A stretch of DNA of 64,000 nt from Alistipes sp. (GCA_017398045.1 JAFQHI010000026.1:99513-163512), one strand, 5' to 3'; shown: positions 14,098 through 36,281, numbered from the stretch's first letter. The notes: generated by a model from the sequence alone, not told the origin. Numbers and translations are program-made.

Positions 14098-15447
14098 ATG
14101 AGTACTCCCCTGACTGCAATCTCCCCGATTGATGGCCGCTACCGCCGCGTGACGGAGCCTTTGGCCGCCTATTTTTCCGAGCAGGCACTGATTCGTTACC
14201 GCATCCGTGTCGAGGTCGAATATTTTATCGCCCTGTGCGAATTGCCGCTGCCCCAGCTTGCAGGGGTCGATAAGTCGGCCTATGCCGCCCTGCGTTCGCT
14301 CTATCTCGACTTCTCGCCCGCCTCGGCAGAGCGCGTGAAGGAGATTGAGGCGGTGACGAACCACGATGTGAAGGCCATCGAGTATATCCTCAAGGAGAAG
14401 ATGGACGAGATTGGTCTGGAGGCTTATAAGGAGTTCGTTCACTTCGGCCTTACGTCGCAGGATATCAACAATACGGCCGTACCCCTCTCGATGAAGGAGG
14501 CCCTGGAGGAGGTGCTGTACCCCGCCTTCGAGGAGGTCGTTGCGAAGATTCGCTCGATGGCCGAGGAGTGGATGGGTGTGCCGATGTTGGCCCGCACGCA
14601 TGGTCAGCCCGCATCGCCCACGGTCTTGGGCAAGGAGTTCATGGTCTATGTTGAGCGTCTGGAGAAGCAGATTGCCCAGCTGAAGGCGGTTCCCGTGCCG
14701 GCCAAATTCGGTGGTGCTACGGGTAATATGAACGCTCACCATGCCGCCTATCCCGCACGTGATTGGGTCGCCTTCGCCAACACCTTTGTCGGTGAGACGC
14801 TCGGCCTGTGCCGCTCGCAATATACCACCCAGATTGAGCATTACGACAACCTGGCCGCGATGTTCGATGCCCTGAAGCGTATCTCGACCATCCTCATTGA
14901 CCTGGCTCGCGATATGTGGATGTACATCTCGTCGGAGTACTTCAAACAGCAGATTAAGGCCGGTGAGGTAGGCTCGAGTGCCATGCCGCACAAGGTCAAT
15001 CCGATTGACTTTGAGAATGCCGAGGGTAACCTCGGTATGGCGATTGCCGTCTATGAGTTCCTTTCGCGCAAGCTCCCCGTATCGCGTCTGCAACGCGACC
15101 TTACGGACTCGACCGTGTTGCGCAACGTGGGCGTGCCGATGGCCCATACGCTCATCGCCCTCAAATCGCTCATGAAGGGGTTGAACAAGGTGCTGCTCAA
15201 CGAGGCTGCGCTGAATCGTGACCTGGAGGAGAACTGGGCTGTGGTGGCCGAGGGTATCCAAACCATCCTTCGCCGCGAGGGCTACCCGAAGCCCTACGAG
15301 GCATTGAAGGCCCTCACCCGCACCAACACCCACATCACCGAGCAGTCTATCAAGGAGTTCATCGAGACCCTGAACGTCGGCGAAAGCGTGAAGGAGGAGT
15401 TACGTCAGTTGTCGCCCTCGAGCTATACGGGCGTCTTCCGCAAGTAA
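14098..15447 (+). CDS. purB: Adenylosuccinate lyase
   Basis: LTAISPIDGRY, MLARTHGQPASPT, GSSAMPHKVNPIDFENAEGN, SRLQRDLTDS. Confidence 0.97.
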   Translation: MSTPLTAISPIDGRYRRVTEPLAAYFSEQALIRYRIRVEVEYFIALCELPLPQLAGVDKSAYAALRSLYLDFSPASAERVKEIEAVTNHDVKAIEYILKEKMDEIGLEAYKEFVHFGLTSQDINNTAVPLSMKEALEEVLYPAFEEVVAKIRSMAEEWMGVPMLARTHGQPASPTVLGKEFMVYVERLEKQIAQLKAVPVPAKFGGATGNMNAHHAAYPARDWVAFANTFVGETLGLCRSQYTTQIEHYDNLAAMFDALKRISTILIDLARDMWMYISSEYFKQQIKAGEVGSSAMPHKVNPIDFENAEGNLGMAIAVYEFLSRKLPVSRLQRDLTDSTVLRNVGVPMAHTLIALKSLMKGLNKVLLNEAALNRDLEENWAVVAEGIQTILRREGYPKPYEALKALTRTNTHITEQSIKEFIETLNVGESVKEELRQLSPSSYTGVFRK

Positions 15448-15571
15448 TTTTTCGATTTTATAGGGCATCTTTGCACTTGCTCTCGCGAGGCGCGAATGGG
15501 AAATACGTTAGTATGACCCATCCGCGCCTCACTTCGTTTAAGTACAAATCTGCACCTCTAAAATCAAAAAA
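15448..15571. repeat. ~124-bp palindromic REP/MITE-like element, copy 1
   Basis: Ends ttttcgatttta...taaaatcaaaaa, centre gaatggg..tac..gta..cccatcc; homologous to 36282-36404. Confidence 0.7.
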
Positions 15572-15600
15572 TGGTGATGGTGGGTTATGGCCTATTTTCG

Positions 15601-15694
15601 ATTAAAGGTAGCTAAAGGTGACTAAAGGTGACTAAAGTGTGAAACTCCTATTGTGCCTTCCCTTAGTAACCTTTAGCAACCCTTAGTTCCCTTT
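15601..15694. repeat. 10-bp-period [CT]TAAAGG array with an inverted second arm
   Basis: attaaaggta gctaaaggtg actaaaggtg actaaag ... cttagtaacc tttagcaacc cttagttccc; 18-mer attaaaggtagctaaagg is identical to 12037-12054. Confidence 0.8.
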
Positions 15695-15720
15695 ATTTTG
15701 AATTTCATGGAGGGCGCAGC

Positions 15721-15825
15721 CCATCCCCTCCTCTTCGCAAAAGGGTTTGCAAGGGCCTTGGGGATTGGCTACTACGCGAGCTATAGGCTCGCTTCGTGAC
15801 GCCTTTCCCCTCCGCTCGCCGCGGG
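15721..15825 (+). repeat. 105-bp direct repeat, left copy
   Basis: Matches 28767-28872 with one substitution and a 1-nt indel. Confidence 0.9.
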
Positions 15826-15930
15826 CCTCAAGTCCTCCCTTAACAAAGGATAAAACATTGGCAAAAATATAAGGGATCAGTCCTAAAAAACCGGTGGGGG
15901 GAATAAAGCAAAATATACTATCTTTGTGGT

Positions 15931-16215
15931 ATGGGCAAGCGTAAAGAGAAGATAGAAGATCCATTGAAGTTGTTGTTGCCTGGGGCGATATACGACTATT
16001 TTGAGTTGGTACATACCGAGGTTTCCGAAGTAGTTGTACATCTGTTTTTAGATGAGCAGCCCCTGCCACCTAAGGCTGTTGGTTATGAGAGTAAGGGGTT
16101 TACCGAGCAGAGCATCATACAAGATTTTCCGCTCAGAGGCAAGCCGGTCTTTCTTCATATTCGCCGTCGTAAGTGGCTCGAAAAGAGCACAGGAAAGGTC
16201 CTGACAAATAGTTAG
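15931..16215 (+). pseudogene. ISL3-family (ISAon1-like) transposase N-terminal fragment
   Basis: LLLPGAIYDYFEL...HLFLDE...SKGF...IQDFPLRGKPVFLHIRRRKW, ending abruptly; no catalytic C-terminal part follows. Confidence 0.75.
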
Positions 16216-16436
16216 ACCCTCTGTAGAATGTAGATAGTGAAGCATTTCATAAAACTTATTGATTGACAAAGTGTTAAGTTGTTTAGATTGAGGGCTTGTT
16301 GTCCGTGCAAAAGTCGTCTAAACATTTATTTTACGAAGATTCTACTCTTCTCATGTAGTCTTCTATGTAGTCTAAATTAAGACCAATTAGTGCTACCAAG
16401 TAAAATAAAGTGACAACTTAACACTTTGTCTCTTTT

Positions 16437-16558
16437 ATGTACACTATTAACATCAAGGGAAAGCCAAATCCCAAGGATCCCGCTATGGTCAAGTTGGAGA
16501 TGATTTCTTCAAGTCCAACTATCCACGAGTAACTAAGGTCGTAAATGTAACAGGTCTT
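16437..16558 (+). pseudogene. Frameshifted N-terminal (arm-binding) fragment of a Bacteroidales tyrosine integrase
   Basis: MYTINIKGKPNPKDPAMVKLEMI, then with one T restored FFKSNYPRVTKVVNVTGLL. This resembles from memory the N-termini of Bacteroidales integrases. Confidence 0.55.
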
Positions 16559-16756
16559 TTGGCGATACCTGCGGACGCTACCACCGCTACTGTTCAGGGT
16601 ATAGAGATGCATGTTATCTCGGCAGAGCAAGCGGACAAGATGCTTGAGGCGGACACAAATGATGAGAAGACTCACGAGTCCATCTTGAAAAATGGACGAT
16701 TCCTATTTGAGTCGAAGAACGGAGAACTCAAAGCACTATACAAAGTACAAGATTAA
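16559..16756 (+). pseudogene. C-terminal part of a small Bacteroidales conjugative-element hypothetical protein
   Basis: AIPADATTATVQGIEMHVISAEQADKML...HESILKNGRFLFES; lacks its own N-terminus and is in frame with the integrase remnant. Confidence 0.45.
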
Positions 16757-16791
16757 GAGCCTGTCTGACATTTTGATTGTTAGACAGGCTC
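16757..16791. terminator. Bidirectional hairpin terminator
   Basis: gagcctgtctgaca / tgttagacaggctc between convergent ORFs. Confidence 0.7.
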
Positions 16792-16815
16792 TTATGGTTT
16801 GAAATAATCAGTCTA

Positions 16816-17853
16816 TTAGTTGACAAAACGAGGTTTTACAAACTTGTCTTTTGTCGTTGTAAATTTCAGACCTGGCATTGTTTTATTCGGAGTAGAATAT
16901 GTAAGCGAGTCAATCAGCGTGTAATCATCTGCATTGATAGCATAGTAACACTGTTCATTTGCGCGATTAACTCGGACAGTCCAATCGAACATATTACCGA
17001 TGATGAGCATCGACTCCGCTTCGGGGTTGAATTGGGGGATCTCGGTCCGTTTTATCGCATAAGAATCGCGCTCAACTACCCAAAAATTACCCTCAACATC
17101 AGTCATAAAGCACAACCATTTACGCGAAGGGAACTCCGTAATAAAGAGATGCTCAACAACCAAATCCTTTGGCAACTCGATAGCGCGTACATAGGCTCGA
17201 CCGACGGTTTGCTTAATATGGAAAAGTTTGCGATTGGCGTCAAGCATTACATATCCTTCGTCGTACTCTTTTCGATCCGTAGGGTTGCCCGACATTCGAT
17301 ACGCGGGGAATACAAAACCCTTGCTCAACATCATCTCCGTAAAACGGTCACTCTTCCTATCGTCAATCTCATTCGTTGCCATCTTCACGAACTCTATACC
17401 CGAGTCGGTGATTCGGAATACATCGTCCGGAAGCGTCAAATCGACTCGTCCCGACATTGACTCCAAGAGCTGCTGTACTCCAATCTTCGGCGCGTTCAAG
17501 TCCAGAGGCGAGATACGCATATTAAAATTGGAGATTTGAACATCGCGCGGAGTTACTGCTCGACCACAGATCGAATCAGGGAAGCGGCCGTCTGTAATTA
17601 ATTGGCGATAATAGAATGTGGGCAGAATCGAATCAAATTGATCCTCGGTATATTCCCCGCCCGTATGATCCTTGTAGGTCATTTTCTTATCTTCGCCGTG
17701 TTGCAGAACTGCGAACTTGCCAACCACAGAGCTATACAGCGTAAACGGCGTATCAGTAGGCTTTACGGCAAAGAAGTTATATATTGATGGTATTTGCCAC
17801 AGCAGAAGCAATACGATCAAACAGCCGAAAAATATTTTACAGGTTCTAATCAT
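16816..17853 (-). CDS. DUF4857-like membrane-anchored protein
   Basis: N-terminal TM; PFTLYSSV, DSILPTFYYRQL, LLESMSGRVDL, LFHIKQTVGR. Confidence 0.7.
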   Translation of the reverse strand: MIRTCKIFFGCLIVLLLLWQIPSIYNFFAVKPTDTPFTLYSSVVGKFAVLQHGEDKKMTYKDHTGGEYTEDQFDSILPTFYYRQLITDGRFPDSICGRAVTPRDVQISNFNMRISPLDLNAPKIGVQQLLESMSGRVDLTLPDDVFRITDSGIEFVKMATNEIDDRKSDRFTEMMLSKGFVFPAYRMSGNPTDRKEYDEGYVMLDANRKLFHIKQTVGRAYVRAIELPKDLVVEHLFITEFPSRKWLCFMTDVEGNFWVVERDSYAIKRTEIPQFNPEAESMLIIGNMFDWTVRVNRANEQCYYAINADDYTLIDSLTYSTPNKTMPGLKFTTTKDKFVKPRFVN

Positions 17854-17873
17854 AATTCATATAACATTTTATG

Positions 17874-18548
17874 TTAATCTTGTCTGCCATCGCGGAATCG
17901 GGTAAGCGATAACATCGACAGCAAACTATACGATAGTGTAACCACTGCTAACAATGGCAGAAAACTATTGTAGGATTCGGGAGCCGGGGACATAAAATAG
18001 ATTCGGAGCAACAGCAGAGCAATGACACCATTGATCACACGATGTTTCCACGTAGGTTCCAACGAAATCCACGCCGTGAGCAGGTAGGCTGCCAGCCCTG
18101 CCAAATACCACGGCAGCGTGCTCAGAATGATATGCTGCCACAGTTCAGGGGCCAACACCGATTGCAGATAGCCCCACATCAATGCTAATGACAGAGCAAA
18201 TGTTGCGATAAGCAGCACACTACCGAACGACAACATCGCTGTGACAGCTCGCGTGGCGCGAATTGGTAGATGCAACGTCAGCTTAAACGATTTATGGTGC
18301 ATCTCTGGAACGAACTGCACAAGAGCTAAGGCGAGGCCCACAAATAGCGGAACAAATTGCAGCAAATCCACGAAGATTGCATCTCGTTGGATCATTACAA
18401 TCCACAAATGCTCGGCACCTTTCATCGAATAAACACGAGCGACACGCAGCATAGCATAGCCTGCAAATCCGATTGAGAGCAGCAACGCCAACAGCCAATA
18501 CCAACGTGTTTTAATCCATTCTTTATAAAATATAGCTTTTATCATCAT
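17874..18548 (-). CDS. ABC-2-type permease-like membrane protein
   Basis: IFYKEWIKTR start, KLTLHLP motif, ~6 TM helices, next to an ABC ATPase. Confidence 0.7.
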   Translation of the reverse strand: MMIKAIFYKEWIKTRWYWLLALLLSIGFAGYAMLRVARVYSMKGAEHLWIVMIQRDAIFVDLLQFVPLFVGLALALVQFVPEMHHKSFKLTLHLPIRATRAVTAMLSFGSVLLIATFALSLALMWGYLQSVLAPELWQHIILSTLPWYLAGLAAYLLTAWISLEPTWKHRVINGVIALLLLRIYFMSPAPESYNSFLPLLAVVTLSYSLLSMLSLTRFRDGRQD

Positions 18549-18549
18549 T

Positions 18550-19428
18550 CTAATATTTACCCGTTAAACCAATAAAAGCATCTTCCAAGCCGACCCGCTC
18601 AACCGTAAGATCCGAAATCCCTTCGCAAGCCAATTGGGCTTTAACCTCCTCCTCCGGCTTCATTGAGAAGAGTTCAAGCGATGTGCGTATTACCGACGGG
18701 TTGTATATACCCTCGGTATTTTTCAACTCGAAGCCCTCTTTAACTTGTGCCGAGTAGCGACGGAATTTACCCAACAACTCCGAAATGGGCTGTTGCACCA
18801 AGATCTTGCCATAGTCCATAATGATACAATCGTCGATAAGACGCTCCATATCTTGTATGATGTGAGAGGTCAGGAAGACCGTTTTATTCTCGGCCTTTGC
18901 ATACTCGCGCATATAATCGACAAACAGACGACGGTAGCCGGGGTCAAGACCCAACGAGAAGTCGTCTAAAACGAGTACCTCGGCATTTTGTGCCAAAATC
19001 AAGCCCAACGCAACCTGCGACCGCTGACCACACGACATACGGTTGATGCGCTGATGAGGTGCAACTTGCAGTCGGCTCATCAGTTCGTAATATGCCGCCT
19101 TGTTCCATGATGGATAGAATGAGGCATAGAATCGCTCGATCTGCTCGATGGTCATAAATTGGTACTGCACATGCCCTTCAATGAGCAGGCTGATTTTGCG
19201 ACGAGTCAGCGGATTCATCTCACCAATCTTCTCGCCCAAGATAAGGCACTCGCCCGAACGAGGTTGCAGGAATCCGCTCAAAATATTGATGGTCGTCGTT
19301 TTGCCCGTACCGTTCTTGCCCAGTAGGCCTAATATGCGACCGCGTGGTACGTCAAACGATAAGTCTTCATATATCAGTCGCTTACCATAGTAATGGGTAA
19401 GATTACGACATTCGATTACATTTTCCAT
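18550..19428 (-). CDS. ABC transporter ATP-binding protein
   Basis: GKNGTGKTT, degenerate signature MSCGQRSQV, LVLDD, FLTSH. Confidence 0.9.
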   Translation of the reverse strand: MENVIECRNLTHYYGKRLIYEDLSFDVPRGRILGLLGKNGTGKTTTINILSGFLQPRSGECLILGEKIGEMNPLTRRKISLLIEGHVQYQFMTIEQIERFYASFYPSWNKAAYYELMSRLQVAPHQRINRMSCGQRSQVALGLILAQNAEVLVLDDFSLGLDPGYRRLFVDYMREYAKAENKTVFLTSHIIQDMERLIDDCIIMDYGKILVQQPISELLGKFRRYSAQVKEGFELKNTEGIYNPSVIRTSLELFSMKPEEEVKAQLACEGISDLTVERVGLEDAFIGLTGKY

Positions 19429-19449
19429 AGAGAGGGGTTAAGTTCTTAT

Positions 19450-20019
19450 TTATTTCACGAAAAAGAGCAGAATCAGCGGAATCGCAATGCCTATCAGCAG
19501 CTCGATACCACCGCGCCCCCAAAGACCGTGTTTGCCTTTCAGCATAACGAGTCCTGTCAGGGTGATAATGATGAGCGACACGGCAAAGATGTCGGCAAAC
19601 CAAGTCCACCATTTGCCCGGGTTGTAGTGCAGAGTGGTCATCGTACTCACTATCGGCTTGCGTTTAAGCGACTCGTAGCACACCTCTCCAGTAGTTAAGT
19701 CCGCAGTCAATGAAGAGCCCCCTTTCAGAAATACCTTTAAGTGGTTCGGTTGAGGAAAATAGTGCTTCGTATAGCTCTCATGGACCTCAACCTGCTCCAT
19801 CAGATTCAAAACGGTCTGTTTGTTAAATGCGGACTGCGAAGGGAGATTGTCGATATGGTGCAGAGTGCGGGTTACGGTGTAGTGAGGGTTGATGCTATCT
19901 CGGTGATTCATCACGAACCCCGAGATAGCATATATAAGAATCATTCCCGAGAAGAAAAACGACAGATCTCGATGAATGGTCCTGCACCACATTCGGAATT
20001 TACTACTCGACAATTTCAT
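19450..20019 (-). CDS. PepSY-associated TM helix protein
   Basis: RTIHRDLSFFFSGMILIYAISG ... TTLHYNPGKWWTWFADIFA. Confidence 0.8.
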   Translation of the reverse strand: MKLSSSKFRMWCRTIHRDLSFFFSGMILIYAISGFVMNHRDSINPHYTVTRTLHHIDNLPSQSAFNKQTVLNLMEQVEVHESYTKHYFPQPNHLKVFLKGGSSLTADLTTGEVCYESLKRKPIVSTMTTLHYNPGKWWTWFADIFAVSLIIITLTGLVMLKGKHGLWGRGGIELLIGIAIPLILLFFVK

Positions 20020-20584
20020 ACGATAATGCCTCTACATAGTAGAATGAGAGATACTCCTTGCCTACGGAAGCCTTACGAGCGGCAATCTTCGTGCGGAAAT
20101 CGGCGATGCGCTCTGCAACCGTGTTACCGGTTTCGCCACGTGCAGCCTTCTCCGAGTCACAACCGGCCTCAACCTCTCCGTGCTGCTCAGCAGTCTGTGC
20201 AGCAACGGCAGCCTCCCAACGTTGCAGATATGCCTCATCTACGCGCTCCTCACGCAAAATGCCATTCACCTTTACAATGCTGTTTACACATTTCTGATCG
20301 AACGACCCGAGCTTGCAAGCCTCAATGCGAATGGTCTTCGTGTCGTCGCTACCCATCATAAAAATTTTGGTGCCACCGTGCGAGCAGATGTGGGTGCAAA
20401 CACCCTCCAACGCAATCTGCTGGTCGGTCAAAGCCTCTGCCTCTGTCAAAACAGCGTCAATCTCCATCGAGGTCGTAGCCTCGGTTGCCTCGGCTGCGTT
20501 GTCAGCAGCCTTCTTCGAATTGTTACCACCGCAGGCAACAAACATGGTCGCTGCCACCAAAAGAATCATCAATTTTGTTTTCAT
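20003..20584 (-). CDS. Lipoprotein of unknown function with a CxHxCxH motif
   Basis: Lipobox FVAC; GVCTHICSHGG and GCDSE motifs. Confidence 0.7.
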   Translation of the reverse strand: MKTKLMILLVAATMFVACGGNNSKKAADNAAEATEATTSMEIDAVLTEAEALTDQQIALEGVCTHICSHGGTKIFMMGSDDTKTIRIEACKLGSFDQKCVNSIVKVNGILREERVDEAYLQRWEAAVAAQTAEQHGEVEAGCDSEKAARGETGNTVAERIADFRTKIAARKASVGKEYLSFYYVEALSYEIVE

Positions 20585-20610
20585 AAATTACCTATGTTTT
20601 AGTTATACAT

Positions 20611-22227
20611 TTAAAAATTACATCCAATTTGAAGTGACACTATATGTCGCATTGCATTGTCAAGATATATTGTATTGAGTGCTTTGCAAAAGGTATAGCT
20701 CAATTCGATATAACTACGCACGCCCTTTTCTCCTATGCGATGAGAGTAACGTGCATTTGCACCTGCTTGAAAGCGGGTGGCTGTATGATATTCATAATCA
20801 CGCATAAGAAGTTCGTCAAGGGTGCGAGTCAAGGTTTCTGCGTTGTTTGAGTTGTTGTATTTCCCATCCTCGCAACAGTCGCCAGTGCCTGCCTGATATC
20901 CCAAATTGATTCTAGCAGAGAACAGACCTTGACCTAGGCTGAAATTCCGTTCAAGCGACGAAGAGAGTTTCCACCACGCAATATCTTGCAGACGATAATC
21001 TGGATAGTTTACAGCATTTTGTTTACGGAGATCGAAATCCGACCTGATATCAATCTGCCAGCGCGGCAACTCTTGTTCAATATCAAGCCGAGCCGTATAT
21101 TGCAATGATATGTTCTGCTCGGTGCGCTCGCCAACCTCCGCATCTCCGAGATAGACATAATAGTTGATACCTACCTCGTCGTTGCGAAAATCATAGATAT
21201 TCTCACGATTCTCCACTTTTCGCTGCTCTGCAACGACTCGCAGCGTGTGGGTACTGCGCAATCCCGTATAGACAAGTTGGCTGTTATAAGCGAGTTGCTC
21301 TCCCGAGTGGGTCGAATAGACTACCGTCGAGGGTGAGTCGTCACCATAGAAGCCTGTTCTGGTGCGATATGACACTTCATTAAACCACTCCCAACGAGTT
21401 CCAATACGCCATGACAGTTGCAACGAACCGCCGTGGTACGAATCGAAGAGAGGCTTTGCCTCATTCTCTTTTGTATACCCTGTATCGCTAAAAAGTTCGC
21501 GTTTACCGAAAAATGCCCCATAATCAACCAGCGTATAGTAGAGTTTGTCGGTAGTGCCATACATACTAAGCAGCAGGCTCTCGTTGCGACGTCGGTAGGC
21601 GTAGTTCGCGCCTATGGTGAGACGCTCGGCAAGACGATAGCTCAATCCTGCGGTCAGAGACATATCCATCAGCGAATTTGTGTGGCGTAGGTCTTTACGC
21701 TTGGCATAATTTGCTGCAGTATAGTCGAACTTCAATCCTCCCGCTAACCTACGTGTAAGGTTGAGTCCTACGGCTCCTGCAAGATGATAGTTCTCTAGTT
21801 GCTTGTTTCCAGGGTTGTCTTCGCTAAATTCAACCAGATCAAAAGGTGTTTGAGTGGGGTCAATAAAGTATGAACCTGTCATCTCCCTACCTCTGAAATT
21901 ACTATAATCCACCTCACCCCATACGGTAACACGCTCCGAGATAGGATAAAACGATAACCCTTTCAACCCCCATTTGTAACCGTTCTTTGCCTCATTATAA
22001 TTACGAAGTCCGCCCGAAAATAGTTCTCCATAGAAACCTACCTCAGAGATGCGGGAGCTTACCGGCAATACGGTCAGTCCTGAGGCATTCTCGCTCGTAA
22101 GCCACGGAAATTGCTGTTGCAAATCAGCAGGACGCAACCACGACACATCTTGTGCCATTAAGGTGGAACCAAAGGCCCCACCTATAATGGCTATACAAAA
22201 TGATAATATTTGCCGTCTTAATCTCAT
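20611..22227 (-). CDS. DUF6850-like outer membrane beta-barrel protein
   Basis: Signal peptide, PWLTSENASGL, YAKRKDLRH, alternating beta pattern, terminal Phe. Confidence 0.7.
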   Translation of the reverse strand: MRLRRQILSFCIAIIGGAFGSTLMAQDVSWLRPADLQQQFPWLTSENASGLTVLPVSSRISEVGFYGELFSGGLRNYNEAKNGYKWGLKGLSFYPISERVTVWGEVDYSNFRGREMTGSYFIDPTQTPFDLVEFSEDNPGNKQLENYHLAGAVGLNLTRRLAGGLKFDYTAANYAKRKDLRHTNSLMDMSLTAGLSYRLAERLTIGANYAYRRRNESLLLSMYGTTDKLYYTLVDYGAFFGKRELFSDTGYTKENEAKPLFDSYHGGSLQLSWRIGTRWEWFNEVSYRTRTGFYGDDSPSTVVYSTHSGEQLAYNSQLVYTGLRSTHTLRVVAEQRKVENRENIYDFRNDEVGINYYVYLGDAEVGERTEQNISLQYTARLDIEQELPRWQIDIRSDFDLRKQNAVNYPDYRLQDIAWWKLSSSLERNFSLGQGLFSARINLGYQAGTGDCCEDGKYNNSNNAETLTRTLDELLMRDYEYHTATRFQAGANARYSHRIGEKGVRSYIELSYTFCKALNTIYLDNAMRHIVSLQIGCNF

Positions 22228-22236
22228 CAGCAGGGA

Positions 22237-23604
22237 TTACTTTTTCAGGCTTGCCTTTGCGCGTTGATGGAAATCTTTTCCTGAGTTATTGGTATCTTGG
22301 AAGACGATATGAGCGCCGTTTGCCATCGATGCTTCTGCGTCAATAGTACTCGGATCGGTAGATGTAGTCCCATTAGAATCGGTTCCCAAGGCGTAGTTAT
22401 ACACTAGTTTGCCTTCATTCTCGGGCAGAGCCTCGGTCGCAGCCTTATCCACATTACGATAGATTGAGTAGCCTTGAGCGTTGGTAAAGGTTACATAGCC
22501 CGTATTCACGGTCGAAGCAAATCGTTCCTTTGATTTGTCAAGCTTATCGGCCTGCCATACCTCAACAGCATCAAGAATCCACTCGTTTTTAACCTTCACA
22601 CCGGCATAAACCTTATTGCCCTCTTTGCCAGGACTGAAGAAGGTATTTTCGGCATTCATACCATATTCGTAAATAGCTGTATCGCCCGAAGAGAAGATGA
22701 AGAATGCAGGTGAATTGTTCGATATTGCCCATGAATTACCCTGCGCAACGAAGGCAATCTTGAAGTAGTTGTCCGTAGGAATCGTTTCAGACGGAGCGGG
22801 GTGATAACTTGTGTTAATCGCTCTATCGAAGCCATCAACGTGGTAGAATACGTAGTCGGCATTGCTCAGATCGACCGAATTTGAGTAGGTCGTTGTGTGG
22901 TTGATTGCACCATTCAACACAACGGTAGCCGATGTATAGGGTGCCAGAACAAACTCCTTAGGCAAGAAGATAACGCCCTGCCACGAGGGAGTATAACCCT
23001 CATTTGCATAGACCAATGCGCCTGCCGAATCGACATTATAGTTGGTGGCGTGAGCATTAGAGGGATTGCACATACCCATACCAAAATTGGCAAGACGTGC
23101 TTCTACCGGAGAGTTGTTGTAGATTACAACATATTTATCATACTGATAAAGACCCGAACCGTCGTCCTTCTGACAACCGCCGAAATAGAACTCCTTGATC
23201 ATCAGCTGCTGTGAGCCTTGACTAACTGCTGCCTCAGCTTTCAGTGCCAAAGCCTCCTGTGCAGTGAAGTTCTCCGCTGTAATAATTGCTTCGACCGAAT
23301 AATTAACAGCATAAGCAACACCGTCGTTAGCCATTGTCTTCGATGCCGTAAAGGTGTAGCGATCGAGCGTAAGATCGAAGGTTGCAACGCCATTGTCATC
23401 GGTTACCGCAGTAAAGGATGTTCCTGTTGAATTGAGTGCCGTAACCTCAATCTCTGACAAATCCGCATCGGGAATCTGTTCGGGTGCAAGAAGTTGCAAT
23501 GTTACGGCGTAGGTACGATACTTATCGATGTCATCATCATCGGTGCAGGCTACCATGCCAATCATCATTGCCGCTATGGCAAATAAAGAAAACAATTTTT
23601 TCAT
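22237..23604 (-). CDS. DUF4876-like surface lipoprotein
   Basis: Lipobox MVAC-TDDDD; LMIKEFYFGGC, YDKYVVIYNNS, WILDAVEV, QDTNNSGKDF. Confidence 0.75.
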   Translation of the reverse strand: MKKLFSLFAIAAMMIGMVACTDDDDIDKYRTYAVTLQLLAPEQIPDADLSEIEVTALNSTGTSFTAVTDDNGVATFDLTLDRYTFTASKTMANDGVAYAVNYSVEAIITAENFTAQEALALKAEAAVSQGSQQLMIKEFYFGGCQKDDGSGLYQYDKYVVIYNNSPVEARLANFGMGMCNPSNAHATNYNVDSAGALVYANEGYTPSWQGVIFLPKEFVLAPYTSATVVLNGAINHTTTYSNSVDLSNADYVFYHVDGFDRAINTSYHPAPSETIPTDNYFKIAFVAQGNSWAISNNSPAFFIFSSGDTAIYEYGMNAENTFFSPGKEGNKVYAGVKVKNEWILDAVEVWQADKLDKSKERFASTVNTGYVTFTNAQGYSIYRNVDKAATEALPENEGKLVYNYALGTDSNGTTSTDPSTIDAEASMANGAHIVFQDTNNSGKDFHQRAKASLKK

Positions 23605-23631
23605 TGTGCTAATTATTTAATGTTATACATA

Positions 23632-26586
23632 TTAAAATTTCAAACGTAACGATAGCCCATAATAGAACTTGGGGATGTAACCACTATCAAATAGAGATGA
23701 TTCAAGCCCTGTCTGAGACGAATGTACTTTGCCCATATTATAAAAAAAGTTTCGGGCATAGAAGGTTACGGAGGCTGTCTTGCCTATCTCTTTTGTCAAA
23801 TTAAAATTTGCAGCAAAATAGCTCGAGACGCGATTCTCGTTAAAATAATATCCCGTGTTGCTTTTTACGACCAGACGCGTTAATTCATTGTATAGTTCCT
23901 TGTCGTTCTCTTTTGCCCAAAGAAACTTTTCGAGGAAAGGGATCTTTGTATCTGGTTCCTCCCACGTGGTGTAATATTCAGGATATATGGCCACATAGCT
24001 GTTTTTGTTATATAGCGTCTCATCCGTACCTACAAAATCATCTGCATCGGCCAGCAATCGGCCCCGCATCTGACCATTGGAATACTCACTTATATGCTGG
24101 TTATAGTTGAGGAACGACGCCTCTATCCTAACCGAAAAGATCATACGAATCTTTGGTATATGAGTAATAATCGTCAGGTTAGTGTTGGCCTGTTTCGAGA
24201 GCGAGCCATTTGACGCGCTAGCACCACCCGCATAATAACCTATGTAACGATAGTGTTGTCCGTTGCTCATCATTGCTGATGGTACCGAGGCCATAATTTG
24301 GTCATTCAAACCCTTGTACCAATAAAAGTTTCCATCAATGCGAATCTGTGTGCGAATCGGCTTAATCTGCGCAAAGTCAATGACGTAGTCAATACCTCGA
24401 CGCTCCACGGCCGTTCCGTTGGTGTACTCGCTCTGCGATACAAATGTATTGAGTTGCTTATAGCCCAATTTTTGATCGGCAACTGCTCCCGTGCGATCCT
24501 TGACAACGACAACGCCTGTCTGCTTATCCACGACATAGATTCTATTCGCAGAAGGTATCGTACAATCATTCTCGATGTTCGTCTGCGTCGTCAGTTTGTA
24601 TGAGAACGGGGTGTAGATATTTCGGCTTGTATATGGATTGTGCGTTTTGTTGCGGAACGCCGAGATTGATATGTGCGTACCTGCAATAGTCGCTTCTACA
24701 CCTATTTCGTTCTGAATGGTATATTGCCACTTCAAATCGGGATTGTAGCGAGGTGTTGTGGGTTGGGTGTAGTAAGCATAGAAAGTCTTTCCCTCGGCCG
24801 TTGTGCCCGGTGCAAAAGAGAGTCGGTCACTGTATGTCGGAGCTGGGTAAAGAATGGCAAACGATGGTTGTTTCACCGACTTACCCCAGCCACCATATAT
24901 TGAGAGGTCGCTAATAACGGACTCTCTATGCTCCCAGAAGACATACCTTGCATTGACACGAGGAGAGAAATTCGCCACCGTGCCATATTCGGAGTCCTTG
25001 ATGAATGTGATGTCAGAACGAAGCCCCGCCGTCAGGCTCAACGAGGAGCGCGCCCCAATGGGGGTCGAGAATTTATCCTCGGCAAAGAGGGCGAGGTTAT
25101 TCATAAACGGCAGCTCATCGTAGCGATATTCTCGCCAAGTTGGAGCTGTTCGCATATCTTCATAGTAGAGACCTCGTCCGAGGTTGCCACTACCATTAAA
25201 CTCTACACCAATAAGCAACTTATTATATAGTTCCGACCAACGCTTTACCCAATCGGCTTTGGCCTTGAACGAATAAGTAATCGGTTTAGAATCGGTATAT
25301 GCCCTCAAATACCAATAACCCGTTGGGCCAAGAATAATATCCGCATTGGGATTCTCATCATATACCTCACCGACATAGTATCCCGTTTCGGTGCTATGAA
25401 TGTATGGTTGAGTCGATGCAGAACTCTTGTTACTATTTGTCTCGTTCAGTCGATCGCTATATGAAGCGGTCGCTTGCAGAGATAGATTCGATATCCACGA
25501 GCGGTCAAGCAGCCAATCAAATTTCAGATTGCCTCGCAACAGATAATCACGTTGCTTGGTGTAAGTATCTTTGAACTCATCAGGGTCGGCTTCAGAGTTA
25601 TACCCTCCGAAGTTACCTCCCAACGATGCAGAAAATCGTATCGGGTGTTCTCTGCTGTCGTGCAGCGTATTTGAGTAAGTCAAACTCAGATTGTTTCGGC
25701 TGTATGCAGTATAGGGCGACGCCAGATTGCTAATCGAACGCGTATGCTCCAAATTCGTATTGAGAACCCCGACCTTATTGCCTAATTGGAAACCTTTACT
25801 TAAAGCAACCGACTTTGTTTTGGGCTCCATCGTAAACTCGACAATATAGGGAGTGTGGCCCTTGCGAGTGTTAATCTTTACCATACCATTCGACAGATCG
25901 CCATACTCAACCGACGGGATACCCGTAACAATCTCGATAGATTCGATGTTAGAAGAACCGATGTTGCGCAAATCAATGCCTTTGGTTTCGCTCAAAACCG
26001 CATTGTTTTCCAAACGCTGACCATCTATGTTGATTGCCGTGCCAAAAGAAGCGTGTCCAAGTTCGCTGGTTGCCCCAGCATGTAACGCTATGCGATTAGA
26101 CGACGATGCAAGGTTCTGATCTCCAACCGTTTTACCACCCGGTAATAATGTTGTCAAATGATTCAGATTAACTAGCTGAGAGTGTTCCAGCGTGTTACGA
26201 TCGATAATATACGAACTGGATTGGTTCTCTGTACGATGTTGAGCTGTGACTACCACCTCTTCAAGCGTTAGATTATTCTCGCTCAGAGCTACATTATGAA
26301 CATTCTCGCCCGCTACCAATTTCAGTTCAATGGTCTGAGACTGATAGCCAAGAAAAGAGATTTGCACAGTGATGACTGACTTGCCGATATTTCGAATCTT
26401 ATAATATCCATCATTATCACTAATAGCCCAAAGACCTTTTGTATCTATCGTAATAGCAGCACCGGTAATTGGTTCTGAACTGTTTTTATCTGTTATGCGG
26501 CCCGAAAGCGAAAATGAATTTTGAGCATAACATTCAACCGAACCAATTACGATGAGGCCTATAATATATACCAAGAGATTTTTCAA
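23632..26586 (-). CDS. TonB-dependent receptor (TTG start)
   Basis: Carboxypeptidase-like N-domain, LEEVVVTA, plug IESIEIVTGIPSVEYGDLSNG, NFSPRVNARY, C-terminal YYGLSLRLKF. Confidence 0.9.
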   Translation of the reverse strand: MKNLLVYIIGLIVIGSVECYAQNSFSLSGRITDKNSSEPITGAAITIDTKGLWAISDNDGYYKIRNIGKSVITVQISFLGYQSQTIELKLVAGENVHNVALSENNLTLEEVVVTAQHRTENQSSSYIIDRNTLEHSQLVNLNHLTTLLPGGKTVGDQNLASSSNRIALHAGATSELGHASFGTAINIDGQRLENNAVLSETKGIDLRNIGSSNIESIEIVTGIPSVEYGDLSNGMVKINTRKGHTPYIVEFTMEPKTKSVALSKGFQLGNKVGVLNTNLEHTRSISNLASPYTAYSRNNLSLTYSNTLHDSREHPIRFSASLGGNFGGYNSEADPDEFKDTYTKQRDYLLRGNLKFDWLLDRSWISNLSLQATASYSDRLNETNSNKSSASTQPYIHSTETGYYVGEVYDENPNADIILGPTGYWYLRAYTDSKPITYSFKAKADWVKRWSELYNKLLIGVEFNGSGNLGRGLYYEDMRTAPTWREYRYDELPFMNNLALFAEDKFSTPIGARSSLSLTAGLRSDITFIKDSEYGTVANFSPRVNARYVFWEHRESVISDLSIYGGWGKSVKQPSFAILYPAPTYSDRLSFAPGTTAEGKTFYAYYTQPTTPRYNPDLKWQYTIQNEIGVEATIAGTHISISAFRNKTHNPYTSRNIYTPFSYKLTTQTNIENDCTIPSANRIYVVDKQTGVVVVKDRTGAVADQKLGYKQLNTFVSQSEYTNGTAVERRGIDYVIDFAQIKPIRTQIRIDGNFYWYKGLNDQIMASVPSAMMSNGQHYRYIGYYAGGASASNGSLSKQANTNLTIITHIPKIRMIFSVRIEASFLNYNQHISEYSNGQMRGRLLADADDFVGTDETLYNKNSYVAIYPEYYTTWEEPDTKIPFLEKFLWAKENDKELYNELTRLVVKSNTGYYFNENRVSSYFAANFNLTKEIGKTASVTFYARNFFYNMGKVHSSQTGLESSLFDSGYIPKFYYGLSLRLKF

Positions 26587-26640
26587 TTCAACAATATATA
26601 ATTACTGGGTGCAAAATTACCTGCGGAAAACAAGGTGGAC

Positions 26641-26702
26641 AATACTCCAATTTTAGTATTTTTGAGAGCTATCGAACATATTTTCACTAAATTTTGGTAT
26701 TG
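26641..26702. promoter_or_regulatory. Candidate LuxR-type operator pair between divergent promoters
   Basis: aatactccaattttagtatt and cactaaattttggtatt lie between TAATTTTG elements on opposite strands. Confidence 0.4.
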
Positions 26703-26749
26703 TCTATTTATAAATAGGTAAGTAATTTTGCATCAATAAATAAGGAAAA

Positions 26750-27703
26750 ATGGATGATTCTATGAGTTATAAACTAACTGATAAGATGCGTGATTTGGTC
26801 AAGGACAACAGCGCGTTGATCCTTGTTATGGGGCGTTTTGGCATATCGTTGGGATTTGGCGATAAATCAGTTAGTGAGGTGTGCCGAATGCACCATGTTA
26901 ACGAAAATACATTCTTGGAAGTTGTTAATTTTGTTTCAAACAAAGAATACAATTATGAATTGATTTCGCTGCCATCGCTCATCGGCTACCTAAAACAAGC
27001 TCACGAATATTATTTGGATTTTAATTTGCCAAATATCCGTCGAAAACTCATAGAAGCCATTGATTGTTCGGGGACCGATGAACTCGCAATGCTAATTTTG
27101 AAATTCTATGATGAGTATGTAACCGAAGTGAGAAAGCATATGGAGTATGAAAATGATGTGGTATTCTCCTATGTAGAACAATTGTCGCAAGGTTTCTTGA
27201 ATCGCAATTTCACTATCTCTAATTTTGCAGGAAAGCACACCCCTATTGGCTATAAACTTAAAGAGCTGAAAGATATTATCATTCGTTATTATCCCGGAAA
27301 GAACAACTACCAACTTAATCAGGTCCTATTGGAAATTATCTTAAGTGAGCAAGATTTGACCTCGCACTGTATGATTGAGGATAAGTTATTTGTTCCCGCA
27401 GTAAAACTCATAGAACAACAACTGAAAAAGAGTGGGCAGATTCAATACACAGATGAAACAGATAGCGAAAGTATCGATAAAGATAAGTTGGAGGTGCTGA
27501 GCGCGCGAGAAAAAGATATTATTATTTGCGTAGCCAAGGGTATGAATAATAAGGAGATTGCAGATTATCTGTATCTATCAGTTCATACTGTAACCACCCA
27601 TCGCCGCAATATATCCAACAAATTGCAGATTCACACCACCGCAGGCTTAATCATCTATGCCATTGCCAATAAACTGGTAAACATTGAGGAGATACAGAAG
27701 TAA
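26750..27703 (+). CDS. Transcriptional regulator: ScdA/RIC-hemerythrin-like domain plus LuxR HTH
   Basis: YLKQAHEYY, KHMEYENDVVF, SHCMIEDKLFVP (HxxxE pairs); LSAREKDIIICVAKGMNNKEIADYLYLSVHTVTTHRRNI. Confidence 0.85.
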   Translation: MDDSMSYKLTDKMRDLVKDNSALILVMGRFGISLGFGDKSVSEVCRMHHVNENTFLEVVNFVSNKEYNYELISLPSLIGYLKQAHEYYLDFNLPNIRRKLIEAIDCSGTDELAMLILKFYDEYVTEVRKHMEYENDVVFSYVEQLSQGFLNRNFTISNFAGKHTPIGYKLKELKDIIIRYYPGKNNYQLNQVLLEIILSEQDLTSHCMIEDKLFVPAVKLIEQQLKKSGQIQYTDETDSESIDKDKLEVLSAREKDIIICVAKGMNNKEIADYLYLSVHTVTTHRRNISNKLQIHTTAGLIIYAIANKLVNIEEIQK

Positions 27704-27752
27704 AACCTTAAATCAATATGTTTTTCCAACCTTATTACACTCCTTCCCAATG

Positions 27753-28643
27753 TTAAATTAACAGGGTTCGGTTTTTAATACGGGTCTCGTGACTCTTCGG
27801 GATTTTAGGCGGTGGATTCTCTGCCCGATTCGATTGGCTGATTAGCTGCCATGAACGACGCCAACAATCAACCCTGTACACGAGTACCTCGTTATTGATT
27901 TTGTTGTAGAGTTTGACCTCTGTCTCTTTTCTACTCGGCTTGCGGACGGTAACCATGAAGATCACCTTCTTTACGATCTCTATCTTTTCGTTTAGCGACA
28001 ACTTCTCATCATCAATCTCTTCCGATAGTAACACATCGTTTATCTGACACTGTTTCATCGCCGACTCATTGGCAAGTTCAACCAATCTCGTCTCGATCTC
28101 CATCTGTTCTACCGAGAGCTCTGCAATCAACTCTTCGGCGCGAGCTTTTCGCAATCTGCCGAAAATGAAACGCTCCTCGACTCGTTCCATCTTATCGTGA
28201 ATAGAGGATAGCTCTCGATTCAGATGCTCGATTTTTGCGGATAGGGTTCCAATCTCTTTGAGGAGCTGTTTGTGTAAGAGTTCTTTGTTTACCACAAACT
28301 TTTCATATAGCTCTTTGGCGACGCTCCAGACCAATGGATCGATGTTGTGCTCAATCAGAAAATCTCGAATGCTGAATAATACCAACTGCCTACGGCTTAA
28401 TCTCGATAGTTCGTAAATATACACCGCCGTAATGGTCGGATTGGTACGAATATGCTCTTTGAGTTTGTTCAGCCCACGCCGCTCCTCCTCGGAGAGTTTA
28501 ATGGCCGACTCCTTATCCTCAATTACGATTACCTCCTCCTTCTTGTATCCATCTTTGTATACCTCCCGCAAAATCTCCTCGGTCTGCTGCCTTAGATCCT
28601 GCTGCAAGGTGCTTACTCTACTTAAAACAATCGCTTTTCTCAT
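27753..28643 (-). pseudogene. Large serine recombinase with an apparent in-frame internal deletion
   Basis: LSRVSTLQQD and YELSRLSR catalytic N-domain joined after ~100 aa directly to a C-terminal coiled coil. Confidence 0.65.
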
Positions 28644-28766
28644 TCATAATATACTGATTTGTAATAATATAACAAACAATCAGCATATCTTTAGCGAGTT
28701 CTTATAGTTTTACCATGGTTTTATGGGAGGACTTAGGAGGGATTTTAAGCACGGGGAGGCCGTAGG

Positions 28767-28872
28767 CCATCCCCTCCTCTTCGCAAAAGGGTTTGCAAGG
28801 GCCTTGGGGGATTGGCTACTACGCGAGCTATAGGCTCGCTCCGTGACGCCTTTCCCCTCCGCTCGCCGCGGG
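28767..28872 (+). repeat. 105-bp direct repeat, right copy
   Basis: Matches 15721-15825. Confidence 0.9.
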
Positions 28873-28973
28873 GGCCCTTGCAAACTTTGGCATGAAGCCC
28901 GAACGACCCCTATGGGGTGCTTTTTATACATATAGGGTACCGTCCGAGTAAACTCGCGGTACCCTATATGCAT

Positions 28974-28997
28974 AAAAAACCTCTGCTAATGCAGAGG
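28974..28997 (-). terminator. Terminator of tRNA-Ser
   Basis: cctctgc-atta-gcagagg followed by TTTTTT on the minus strand. Confidence 0.7.
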
Positions 28998-29023
28998 TCG
29001 TTCGGGCTGTCATGCCCCTTTTG

Positions 29024-29111
29024 CGGAGAGGAGGGGATTCGAACCCCTGAAACACTTTTGGCGTTTACTCACTTTCCAGGCGAGCCAGTTCAACCACTCC
29101 TGCACCTCTCC
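29024..29111 (-). tRNA. tRNA-Ser(GGA)
   Basis: GGAGAGG/CCTCTCC acceptor stem, ctcgc-CTGGAAA-gtgag anticodon arm, long variable arm, GGTTCGAATCC. Confidence 0.95.
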
Positions 29112-29175
29112 GTTTTGCGGGACAAAGGTAGCATAAAAATTGGAATTTTTACGCTTTCGCCCCGACTTTTTATTG

Positions 29176-30237: not shown

Positions 30238-30260
30238 GGGTTATAGGATTGTGTAGGTTT

Positions 30261-31100: not shown

Positions 31101-31124
31101 AAATTCAAAGTGGCTTTTCAGTAA

Positions 31125-31158
31125 AAATCCCACTCTTGCACGGGCAGGAGCGGGATTT
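31125..31158 (-). terminator. Attenuator terminator upstream of pheA
   Basis: aaatcccgctc...gagtgggattt followed by a U-run, between the leader peptide and pheA. Confidence 0.75.
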
Positions 31159-31177
31159 CAAATTCGTTGTTATCGTT

Positions 31178-31258
31178 TTAATACATACGCGCCATCTCGC
31201 CCCTTTTCTTGTCGCCAAAAAAGAAGTAATAAAAGCCGTATGCAAAAAAGTTCGTCAT
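31178..31258 (-). CDS. Phe/Tyr-rich attenuation leader peptide (26 aa)
   Basis: MTNFFAYGFYYFFFGDKKRGEMARMY*; 9 of residues 4-14 are F or Y. Confidence 0.8.
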   Translation of the reverse strand: MTNFFAYGFYYFFFGDKKRGEMARMY

Positions 31259-31409
31259 ATCTGTTTGCAAATTTAGGCAAAAAGTGGAAAAATCCAACCC
31301 TTTGTACCAAATTTTTCGTCCTTTCGGGGCAAAATTTTATGATCGCGGTATCTTGCTATCCTTTTTTTGCTACCTTTGTTTTAGGTTTTAATTTAATTGC
31401 GCTGTTGTC

Positions 31410-32597: not shown

Positions 32598-32605
32598 GCC
32601 TTAGG

Positions 32606-34213: not shown

Positions 34214-34229
34214 GAGGATGGTGTTTAGG

Positions 34230-34988: not shown

Positions 34989-35088
34989 AGGTGCAAAGAT
35001 AAGGAAAAAGACCGTCTTTTCGGACAGTCTTCTTCCTTTTTTAGTGGTCGATAGGACCTTTTTCCTCGCACGTGAGGGGCGAAAGGTG

Positions 35089-36261: not shown

Positions 36262-36281
36262 GGTAGTAATGCTATTTAGGG

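Follow-up and report, generated by a model that had tools for sequence, protein, structure and literature searches.

A probable serine-recombinase island between two tRNA-linked repeat units in Alistipes

Known elements of the large serine recombinase (LSR) type include those of the phiC31/Bxb1-type phage integrases, the clostridial Tn4451 (TnpX) and Tn5397 (TndX), and the 'multi-targeting' LSRs of genome-mining surveys. Tyrosine-integrase islands, such as the P4-like islands and NBU1/NBU2 in Bacteroides, occupy tRNA 3′ ends, and their integrase-less derivatives are called CIMEs. A third kind of structure near tRNA genes, the tRNA-linked repeats (TLRs) of E. coli K-12, comprises 22 units, spread over ten loci downstream of tRNA or rRNA genes; the last 18-19 bp of each unit repeat exactly the 3′ end of the gene before it, and their function is unknown apart from three units behind rRNA operons, which are read as small RNAs (PMC8144298).

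We analysed 64,000 nucleotides of an Alistipes sp. genome (the window; positions are counted from its first letter), in which the initial annotation had described a 13-kb island bounded by 105-bp direct repeats next to a tRNA-Ser gene. The source genome is a MAG of 56 contigs, and every genome compared with it is also a MAG. We consider it likely (probability about 0.8) that positions 15850-28724 are a decayed LSR-type integrative element that was inserted into a hairpin between two pre-existing tRNA-linked units and whose recombinase was later deleted.

Repeat units behind tRNA-Ser(GGA) and their family

The repeats and the tRNA gene are arranged as follows:

15709-15825, minus strand: distal (left) tRNA-linked-repeat-like unit, 98% identical to the right unit, its core belonging to a genus-wide family
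28755-28885, minus strand: proximal (right) tRNA-linked-repeat-like unit, with a T-arm-mimic hairpin (28753-28774) and the core (28808-28872)
28886-29022, minus strand: P3 module, terminator-like hairpins placed back to back and enclosed by a stem GCCCGAACGACC / GGTCGTTCGGGC, then the tRNA trailer
29023-29111, minus strand: tRNA-Ser(GGA), which forms the outer stem P1 by pairing of its 3′ end with the unit's inverted copy

Read on the plus strand, the left unit consists of a hairpin (15709-15726), an inverted copy of the tRNA-Ser 3′ end and trailer (15723-15745), a P2 arm (15745-15757) and the core (15761-15825), with no second P2 arm; in the right unit the inverted copy (28769-28791) is accompanied by P2 arms at 28791-28803 and 28873-28885. 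Several details of the initial annotation were borne out here. The repeats can be extended leftward to 15709-15825 and 28755-28872; over 15723-15825 and 28769-28872 their only differences are a T/C substitution and an indel in a G run. The reversed tRNA copy, ATCCCCTCCTCTTCGCAAAAGGG in both units, is complementary at 22 of 23 positions to 29016-29038 (the 3′ end plus an 8-nt trailer), a match for which we estimate a chance expectation of ~1e-7 per 64 kb (23-mer with one mismatch). The hairpin upstream of each copy covaries (left GGA-GGGC-GCA-GCCC-A-TCC, right GGGGA-GGCC-GTA-GGCC-A-TCCCC), with one pair flipped from G-C to C-G. Folding of 28755-29040 gives a nested palindrome (z = -16.6 and -16.8 for the two strands), and P3-type architecture is also found behind other tRNA genes.

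The 65-nt core, a conserved covarying hairpin within a T-arm mimic, recurs at other tRNA genes of this genome, with seven strong and three weaker occurrences, and in 12 of the 24 other Alistipes species sampled, almost always about 130-150 nt behind a tRNA gene; no Rfam family matches the units. Across the family the distance behind the tRNA gene is 122-154 nt, and second units follow at ~315-407 nt. The right unit begins 142 nt behind tRNA-Ser(GGA), directly downstream and in the gene's orientation, and the left unit is 13 kb from the gene only because the island separates them. Most members end in an exact ~17-nt copy (T-loop AATCC to discriminator) of the 3′ end of their own tRNA; exact 17-nt copies were found for Val, His, Glu, Ser, Pro and Arg genes, an exact downstream copy of the gene's own 3′ end follows 11 of the 42 tRNA genes of this genome, and TLR-like units stand at about a quarter to a third of them. 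The two units at this locus have no direct copy of 17-19 nt; theirs is only AATCCCC (7 nt), followed by a P2 arm and the inverted 23-nt copy. Judged by sequence, the 105-nt repeats belong to a genus-wide family of structured tRNA-linked units. Their 98% identity exceeds that of the tandem pairs at tRNA-Ser(CGA) and tRNA-Val of this genome, but near-identical tandem units do occur in its tRNA-Cys array, and we can only attribute the identity to recent duplication or gene conversion.

Island ends and their recurrence in other genomes

Between the units, the features of the two junctions are, with no strand assigned:

15830-15849: left target-hairpin half (attB half-site), with stem AAGTCCTCCC (15830-15839), loop TTAACAAA (15840-15847) and the shared GG (15848-15849)
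15850-15873: left island end ATAAAACATTGGCAAAAATATAAG, an attP-type half-site whose inverted match to the right end is 20/24
28701-28724: right island end CTTATAGTTTTACCATGGTTTTAT, likewise an attP-type half-site, lying 57 nt ahead of the start codon of the recombinase gene
28725-28754: right target-hairpin half, with the shared GG (28725-28726) in stem GGGAGGACTT (28725-28734), then AGGAGGGATTTTAAG, part of the hairpin module

The segment 15850-28724 (12,875 bp) is a genuine foreign island: GC content is 36-48% over ~15.8-28.7 kb versus 53-60% in the flanks, the drop falls exactly between the two repeat units, and a recombinase gene lies at the island's inner edge. The island as such is thus real, but the 105-bp repeats are not its recombination sites. 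Each of its 24-nt imperfect inverted ends adjoins an identical GG dinucleotide (15848-15849 and 28725-28726), so that, as in LSR elements, inverted half-sites surround a 2-bp repeat at both junctions and no long direct repeat made by integration is present. The junctions contain no tRNA sequence and the copies of the tRNA end run opposite to the gene, in agreement with the earlier remark that the repeats do not fit a classic tRNA attL/attR; as no integrase family was seen among the island ORFs scanned either, we rejected a classic tyrosine-integrase tRNA island.

A 10-bp inverted motif had been described as marking the inner edges of the repeats. It is present at 15830-15839 (initially placed at 15829) and 28725-28734, within 1-2 nt of the original positions, but is in fact the split stem of a single hairpin, with AAGTCCTCCC to the left of the island and GGGAGGACTT to the right. 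It forms part of a module (AATCCnCC..CCTCC TTTGnnAA GGAGG) that is dispersed and in Alistipes often lies between tandem tRNA-linked-repeat-like units. The module is uninterrupted at four places in the same genome (C16:170639, C5:40439, C30:20495 and C39:35049), and the left half-site matches them. The insertion point is constant, at the 5′-stem/loop boundary of the AATCCnCC..CCTCC/TTTGnnAAGGAGG module.

The same element ends were found in at least eight Alistipes/Rikenellaceae assemblies, at no fewer than four loci and with differing cargo. In G042, G097, G091, G089, RGIG7716, SIG171 and RGIG3003 the element is bounded by the 24-nt inverted ends and CC/GG in the small hairpin module, and not by the repeats. 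The left end plus CC is present in G042, G091, G097 and G089, and in left-type junctions (five genomes) CC is followed each time by TTTG(A/T)(A/T)AAGG.AGG, the loop differing in G042 (TTCGTTAA) and G089 (TCCTGTGA). The right end is identical or 1 nt off in L059/L162, L060/L159, G042, L160, L165 and L167, and right-type junctions (six records) are all preceded by ..AATCCnCC..CC(T/C)CC. Those of L160, L165 and L167 represent three loci other than tRNA-Ser(GGA), the fetched stretches containing no tRNA-Ser gene, and the outer flank of L167, aaaaaacatatagacaatccccctaaatccccc, exactly matches the intact site C30:20495 of the window's own genome. Contig C29 of G042 carries both junctions, 11.8 kb apart, around different cargo of native GC, and its outer flanks rejoin to aatcctccccaaCCCCTCC-ttcgttaa-GGAGGGGctt. 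No repeat unit lies outside the left junction in G042, G091 and G089, or outside the right junction in SIG171, RGIG3003 and L167 and likewise L160 and L165.

Exact-pattern scans of genome and metagenome collections gave no match to an empty site at this exact locus, around which synteny is broken in the closest relatives, and pattern scans of metagenome, viral and genome collections gave none to a joined attP or circular form.

The recombinase gene and the cargo

Inside the ends we distinguished four features:

15931-16215, plus strand: transposase-like ORF, a 94-aa N-terminal fragment with a weak ISL3 zinc-ribbon match (E = 0.009, below the Pfam cut-off)
16816-26586, minus strand: eight-gene TonB-dependent uptake operon (cargo)
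26750-27703, plus strand: cargo regulator with domain matches to a hemerythrin domain and a LuxR/GerE HTH domain
27753-28643, minus strand: internally deleted large serine recombinase, 296 aa, corresponding to residues 1-101 and 308-504 of an intact protein of 504 aa

The recombinase begins with MRKAIVLSRVSTLQQD, which includes an RVS motif with the serine nucleophile, and matches the N-terminal catalytic Resolvase domain (PF00239, E = 6.8e-11). Compared with an intact 504-aa protein from another Alistipes, it is 99% identical over residues 1-101 and 97% over residues 308-504, and an in-frame deletion of 206 residues (102-307) has removed the remainder of the catalytic domain together with the Recombinase domain, so that PF07508 finds no match in the window protein, which is also shorter than the ~450-700 aa expected of an LSR. 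Since intact homologues of 504 and 499 aa have both Resolvase and Recombinase domains, the window gene is a deletion derivative of a true LSR. In each of the seven records in which the right end was found, the gene next to it is that of the serine recombinase, and the 57-nt spacing to its start is preserved. DNA identity to L059 is 95.5-96.9% across the recombinase and end region versus 83.5% across the neighbouring chromosome. No further recombinase of this clade was found elsewhere in the genome. A second clade (~52% identical) occurs in G014, G178 and G189; it adjoins the tRNA-proximal edge of the terminator module of such a repeat unit in the former two and a plain terminator hairpin in G189.

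The operon encodes a DUF4857 protein, an unassigned protein, an ABC ATPase, a PepSY_TM-like protein, a second unassigned protein, DUF6850, DUF4876 and a TonB-dependent receptor. The DUF4857 protein has its closest relatives (72-75% amino-acid identity) in ruminant-gut Bacteroidaceae MAGs; within Alistipes it is 71% identical to a protein of one rabbit-gut MAG and 53-63% to others. At the DNA level this conserved operon is 65-77% identical to the Bacteroidaceae records found. The cargo (operon and regulator) is of lower GC and, by these comparisons, most similar to Bacteroidaceae genes.

Origin of the island and comparison with known systems

The element would have carried an attP of ~50 bp, on the plus strand CTTATAGTTTTACCATGGTTTTAT-GG-ATAAAACATTGGCAAAAATATAAG, with two inverted half-sites around a 2-bp crossover. 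We infer that the enzyme was this LSR, that strands crossed over at GG/CC and that, prior to insertion, the two units were neighbours. The recombinase would have joined attP to the chromosomal hairpin AAGTCCTCCC-TTAACAAA-GGGAGGACTT, originally located between two near-identical units behind tRNA-Ser(GGA), cutting at GG (CC on the opposite strand) at the loop-stem boundary; hence the hairpin is now split, with GG at both junctions. Insertion would have pushed the units 13 kb apart, giving them the appearance of island-bounding direct repeats, and, the island having entered a hairpin between pre-existing copies, the 105-bp repeats would be bystanders. The subsequent in-frame loss of 206 residues would mean that the island can no longer excise itself. 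RecA-type recombination between the 98%-identical units, which is physically plausible, could hypothetically still delete the island together with one unit.

The units might instead be attL and attR, formed by recombination of a chromosomal unit with the one unit on a circular element, so that recombination between them would be the designed route of excision. Their 98% identity over 105-117 nt on either side of a low-GC segment fits this, as does the high identity to L059, which continues ~105 nt past the inverted end into the unit and could mean that flanking repeat sequence was co-transferred. However, other copies of the element have no unit outside the left (G042, G091, G089) or the right junction (L160, L165, L167), the core is dispersed at many island-free tRNA genes, what lies between the units and the low-GC DNA is the two halves of a hairpin that is intact elsewhere, and no tyrosine integrase was seen among the ORFs scanned. 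Dispersed copies and borders at other places are also the two kinds of observation that the initial annotation had named as counting against its reading, and both were made here. We regard this explanation as largely refuted and very improbable.

Inverted ends, a 2-bp flanking repeat and a transposase-like fragment next to the left end would also suit a DDE-type transposon, with the 24-bp ends as terminal inverted repeats, GG as target duplication and the remnant at 15931-16215 as the mover. ISL3 elements make ~8-bp target duplications, whereas the repeat here is 2 bp; the ISL3 match is marginal and covers a 94-aa fragment instead of a full transposase; the DNA inside the left end differs in G042, G091 and G097, which have no transposase there; and it is the serine recombinase that keeps its place and spacing behind the right end in 7/7 records. 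This makes a transposon very improbable. An assembly or binning artefact, in which a low-GC piece of another organism was joined to an Alistipes contig at the repeats, might be suspected from the 56 contigs, the joins within repeats and the Bacteroidaceae-like cargo, but it is extremely improbable, given that the right junction (tRNA-Ser unit, hairpin half, element end and recombinase) was assembled independently in four genomes and the left-type junction in five, that G042 has both on one contig around native-GC cargo, and that the cargo DNA is only 65-77% identical to any Bacteroidaceae record found.

Insertion by a serine recombinase into the hairpin, which we prefer, accounts for the entry of a Bacteroidaceae-like uptake operon into this genome, and indicates that an island flanked by long direct repeats need not have them as its att sites; here the true sites would be a 24-nt inverted pair and a 2-bp crossover between the repeats. 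It also provides a candidate attP/attB pair (the reconstructed 50-bp attP and a ~28-bp hairpin attB) for an LSR targeting a multi-copy palindromic repeat of gut Alistipes, a possible integration tool for these poorly tractable bacteria. More tentatively, and with the odds rather against it, the hairpin module and the repeat arrays may be genus-wide landing pads for serine-recombinase islands, used by two LSR clades, with units that are themselves perhaps mobile or RNA-producing; if so, the units would shape the entry points of foreign operons into Alistipes genomes.

Like tyrosine-integrase islands, this one lies beside a tRNA gene with copies of the tRNA 3′ end nearby, but the copies are inverted and part of the repeat units, not of the island, and the recombinase is of the serine type. 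The Alistipes family resembles E. coli TLRs in standing directly behind tRNA genes, singly or in tandem, and in that most units end in a copy of their own tRNA 3′ end. As a second Alistipes genome with TLR-like units at about a quarter to a third of its tRNA genes, the present one supports the view that repeats of this kind are widespread beyond enterobacteria. The family differs from the E. coli TLRs in phylum, in having no sequence similarity, in a core formed by a covarying hairpin set in a T-arm mimic, in the inverted tRNA end and trailer that the tRNA-Ser variants add to give a 270-nt nested palindrome, and, in this locus's two units, in a direct copy of just 7 nt. With LSR elements the island shares a Resolvase plus Recombinase protein of ~500 aa (in intact relatives) encoded beside one end, a ~50-bp attP of two inverted half-sites, sequence-specific targets, and a 2-bp crossover at both junctions with no long target duplication. 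The window copy departs from them in being dead through an in-frame deletion and in that neither a directionality factor nor genes for phage functions or conjugation were seen in it. It is otherwise an ordinary decayed serine-recombinase island, and its unusual feature is a repeat-borne target: unlike those of known LSR elements, this is a dispersed palindromic hairpin module with many copies per genome, often within tRNA-linked repeat arrays, which gives the element several possible landing sites, at least four of them used across genomes.

The low-GC island and its two flanking units

The 13-kb island proposed in the initial annotation is real, with a GC content of 36-48% at about 15.8-28.7 kb against 53-60% on each side. 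We read this segment as a decayed large serine recombinase (LSR) island, with a probability of about 0.8. Its features (window positions) are:

Left flank: purB
15850-15873: left island end, ATAAAACATTGGCAAAAATATAAG, adjoining GG at 15848-49
15931-16215: transposase-like N-terminal fragment
16816-26586, minus strand: TonB-dependent uptake operon of eight genes
26750-27703: hemerythrin/LuxR regulator
27753-28643, minus strand: 296-aa protein with a Resolvase domain
28701-28724: right island end, CTTATAGTTTTACCATGGTTTTAT, adjoining GG at 28725-26
Right flank, past the tRNA: DAHP-synthase/chorismate-mutase gene

For the DUF4857 protein of the operon, the closest relatives come from ruminant-gut Bacteroidaceae MAGs (72-75% amino acid identity); within Alistipes, identity reaches 71% in one rabbit-gut MAG and 53-63% in the rest. 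Our search for a cargo donor returned neither a near-identical or recent source nor an LSR-linked copy of the operon; the operon shares only 65-77% DNA identity with the best Bacteroidaceae or Alistipes loci.

The near-identical repeats described initially do exist, at 15709-15825 and 28755-28872, and their alignment spans 117/118 nt. The two units are 98% identical: a single substitution and an indel in a G run are the only differences from 15723/28769 on, and the leading hairpins have three mismatched positions, two of them accounting for one base pair that changes from G-C to C-G. The reversed tRNA copy also held up, since the 23 nt starting each repeat are complementary (22/23) to 29016-29038, the tRNA-Ser(GGA) 3′ end with its 8-nt trailer (gene 29023-29111, minus strand). 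Such an inverted tRNA end plus trailer, along with an additional stem (P2) around the core, characterizes the tRNA-Ser variants of the unit, which identifies what that copy is. The region 28755-29040 forms a nested palindrome fold on both strands (z about -16.7), and in an Rfam search over 15000-30000 the tRNA alone matched above chance. Directly left of the left unit, at 15560-15700, lie 10-base repeats in hairpin-like arrays (taaaggtnac... facing ...gtnacctttag).

The repeats had been proposed to bound the island and to excise it by recombining with each other. As borders they fail: a 65-nt core of the unit is dispersed over seven strong and three weaker sites in the window's genome and, among 24 further Alistipes species sampled, is present in 12 (and in 0 of 16 further genera from the order), and related islands are bounded elsewhere. 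Homologous recombination between the units could nevertheless delete the island.

Island ends and the probable target hairpin

Just inside the 10-nt inverted motifs lie 24-nt imperfect inverted repeats (20/24 matching), and the recombinase gene starts 57 nt inward of the right end. The right end recurs, identical or 1 nt off, at the tRNA-Ser(GGA) locus of Alistipes MAG RGIG8565, of RGIG7716 and of genome G042, and also at three unrelated loci, in Rikenellaceae SIG171, in Alistipes RGIG3003 and in a second copy of the element in RGIG8565. The left end followed by CC is present in G042, G091, G097 (the RGIG8565 genome) and G089. G042 carries the two junctions on a single contig, 11.8 kb apart, enclosing quite different cargo of native GC; its outer flanks, ending in aatcctccccaaCCCCTCC and resuming with CCttcgttaaGGAGGGGctt, reconstruct when joined (CC taken once) a hairpin module (AATCCnCC..CCTCC TTTGnnAA GGAGG). 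The same module stands uninterrupted at C16:170639, C5:40439, C30:20495 and C39:35049 (contig:position) in the window's own genome, and the second RGIG8565 copy has an outer flank, aaaaaacatatagacaatccccctaaatccccc, that exactly matches the intact C30:20495 site. Joined likewise, the window flanks give AAGTCCTCCC-TTAACAAA-GGGAGGACTT. The 10-nt inverted motif is present (15830-15839 and 28725-28734), but, since the window flanks rebuild the hairpin, it is the split stem of the target rather than a marker of the island's inner edges.

Serine recombinases leave inverted half-sites at the element ends and a 2-bp sequence common to both junctions, with the recombinase gene beside one end. From the sequence we infer that the island junctions are the product of such an enzyme. 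DNA identity to RGIG8565 is 95.5-96.9% across the recombinase and end region, compared with 83.5% in the adjacent chromosome, and the high identity reaches roughly 105 nt past the element end. This contrast, together with the two RGIG8565 copies, points to a recently mobile element family.

Before insertion, the order was most likely tRNA-Ser(GGA), terminator module P3, unit, hairpin module, second (partial) unit, 10-mer array and purB; an LSR element would then have inserted in the hairpin, leaving the two units separated by 13 kb. The less usual feature of the island is its target, a multi-copy hairpin repeat inside tRNA-linked repeat arrays.

The recombinase, related islands and searches for the empty site

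Alistipes homologues of the window recombinase are 499-504 aa long and carry Resolvase and Recombinase domains, and are therefore large serine recombinases. The window protein matches the 504-aa protein of RGIG8565, encoded at L059 9080-10594, over residues 1-101 (99% identical) and 308-504 (97%); an in-frame deletion of 615 nt has removed the DNA-binding domain together with the rest of the catalytic domain. The residues 'NI' flank the deletion on both sides (short identical stretches encoding Asn-Ile, window 28341-28350), which suggests that it arose by slippage or microhomology-mediated deletion. The window's genome contains no further copy of this LSR clade. In elements with an intact LSR, a second, small serine recombinase of 213-230 aa, with a Resolvase domain and no other, is encoded immediately after it (RGIG8565 locus L059, 10658-11350; L046, 13028-13669); the window copy has lost this gene.

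Another LSR clade, with about 52% identity, is found at L046 (G014:C48, 6585-15440), L064 (G178:C17) and L063 (G189:C43), with different ends (TTTATAAAACTATATCATAAG...). Its G014 island, 8.8 kb and of low GC, separates the tRNA-Ser(GGA) trailer from the P3 terminator module; no common crossover dinucleotide could be placed from the two G014 junctions.

The comparison genomes are all MAGs, and in no relative examined are purB and the DAHP-synthase gene neighbours. An orthologous empty site was not found among them, synteny being broken; in G016, the closest relative sampled, the region is arranged otherwise, across two contigs. There, a homologue of window 35089-36321 comes within about 1.1 kb after purB (L049, C27), and the tRNA-Ser/DAHP-synthase block lies on a separate contig (L050, C68). 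The difference covers about 19.6 kb of the window (15441-35089), extending beyond the island, and stems either from a rearrangement or from a problem in the MAG assembly. The predicted empty hairpin, searched as an exact pattern, had 0 matches in genome and metagenome contig collections, and the joined attP (CTTATAGTTTTACCATGGTTTTAT-GG-ATAAAACATTGGCAAAAATATAAG) had 0 in metagenome, viral and genome collections. Literature searches on LSRs and tRNA in Bacteroidales and on CIME/accretion yielded nothing specific.

Repeat units behind tRNA genes

Core copies lie 122-154 nt downstream of a tRNA gene, in the same orientation, with tandem second units at about 315-407 nt; they accompany genes for Ser (four anticodons), Val, His, Glu, Arg and Pro tRNAs. 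Most copies continue past the core with AATCC and then the exact 3′ end of the unit's own tRNA up to the discriminator; behind the tRNA-Pro(TGG) core the copy has 2 mismatches. Of the genome's 42 tRNA genes, 11 are followed, 174-282 nt downstream, by a perfect repeat of at least 16 nt of their own 3′ end. Tandem units are common, typically with the hairpin module between them, and near-identical ones occur elsewhere, for example in the tRNA-Cys array. The 10-base repeat arrays form the distal end of several tRNA-linked arrays, being found also downstream of C15:72790, C15:332440, C29:77309 and C3:24778.

The core hairpin, set within a T-stem-like helix, shows 8-10 compensatory double changes at three pairs. 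Beside it (e.g. 28808-28872, minus strand), nearly all copies have an internal loop with CGAAGC or GCGGAGC opposite GUAGUAGCC, which we take to resemble the AGUA/GAA loop-E (bulged-G) RNA motif; this likeness, if true, would favour an RNA function in the tRNA sense.

At least two unrelated unit families lie behind tRNA genes. The second, of about 200-280 nt, occurs at C3:24778 (Asp), C26:23656 (Cys), C30:61152 (Leu-CAA), C39:147009 (Glu-CTC) and C4:31337 (Pro-GGG), and has the motif GGGTTGCGCGG..TTGCTCG..CTGCGC..CGCGAG..TTCG; after it come 21 nt copied exactly from the tRNA, T-loop to 3′ end. At tRNA-Cys a complete unit is present in almost perfect tandem duplication, and at tRNA-Pro(GGG) an inverted tRNA-end copy follows the terminator module.

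For the repeat units, candidate ideas considered were IS200/605-type guide RNAs, IS110 bridge RNAs, casposon-like long target duplications and retro-type priming. The function of the E. coli tRNA-linked repeats is still unknown (PMC8144298); the Alistipes units share their design.
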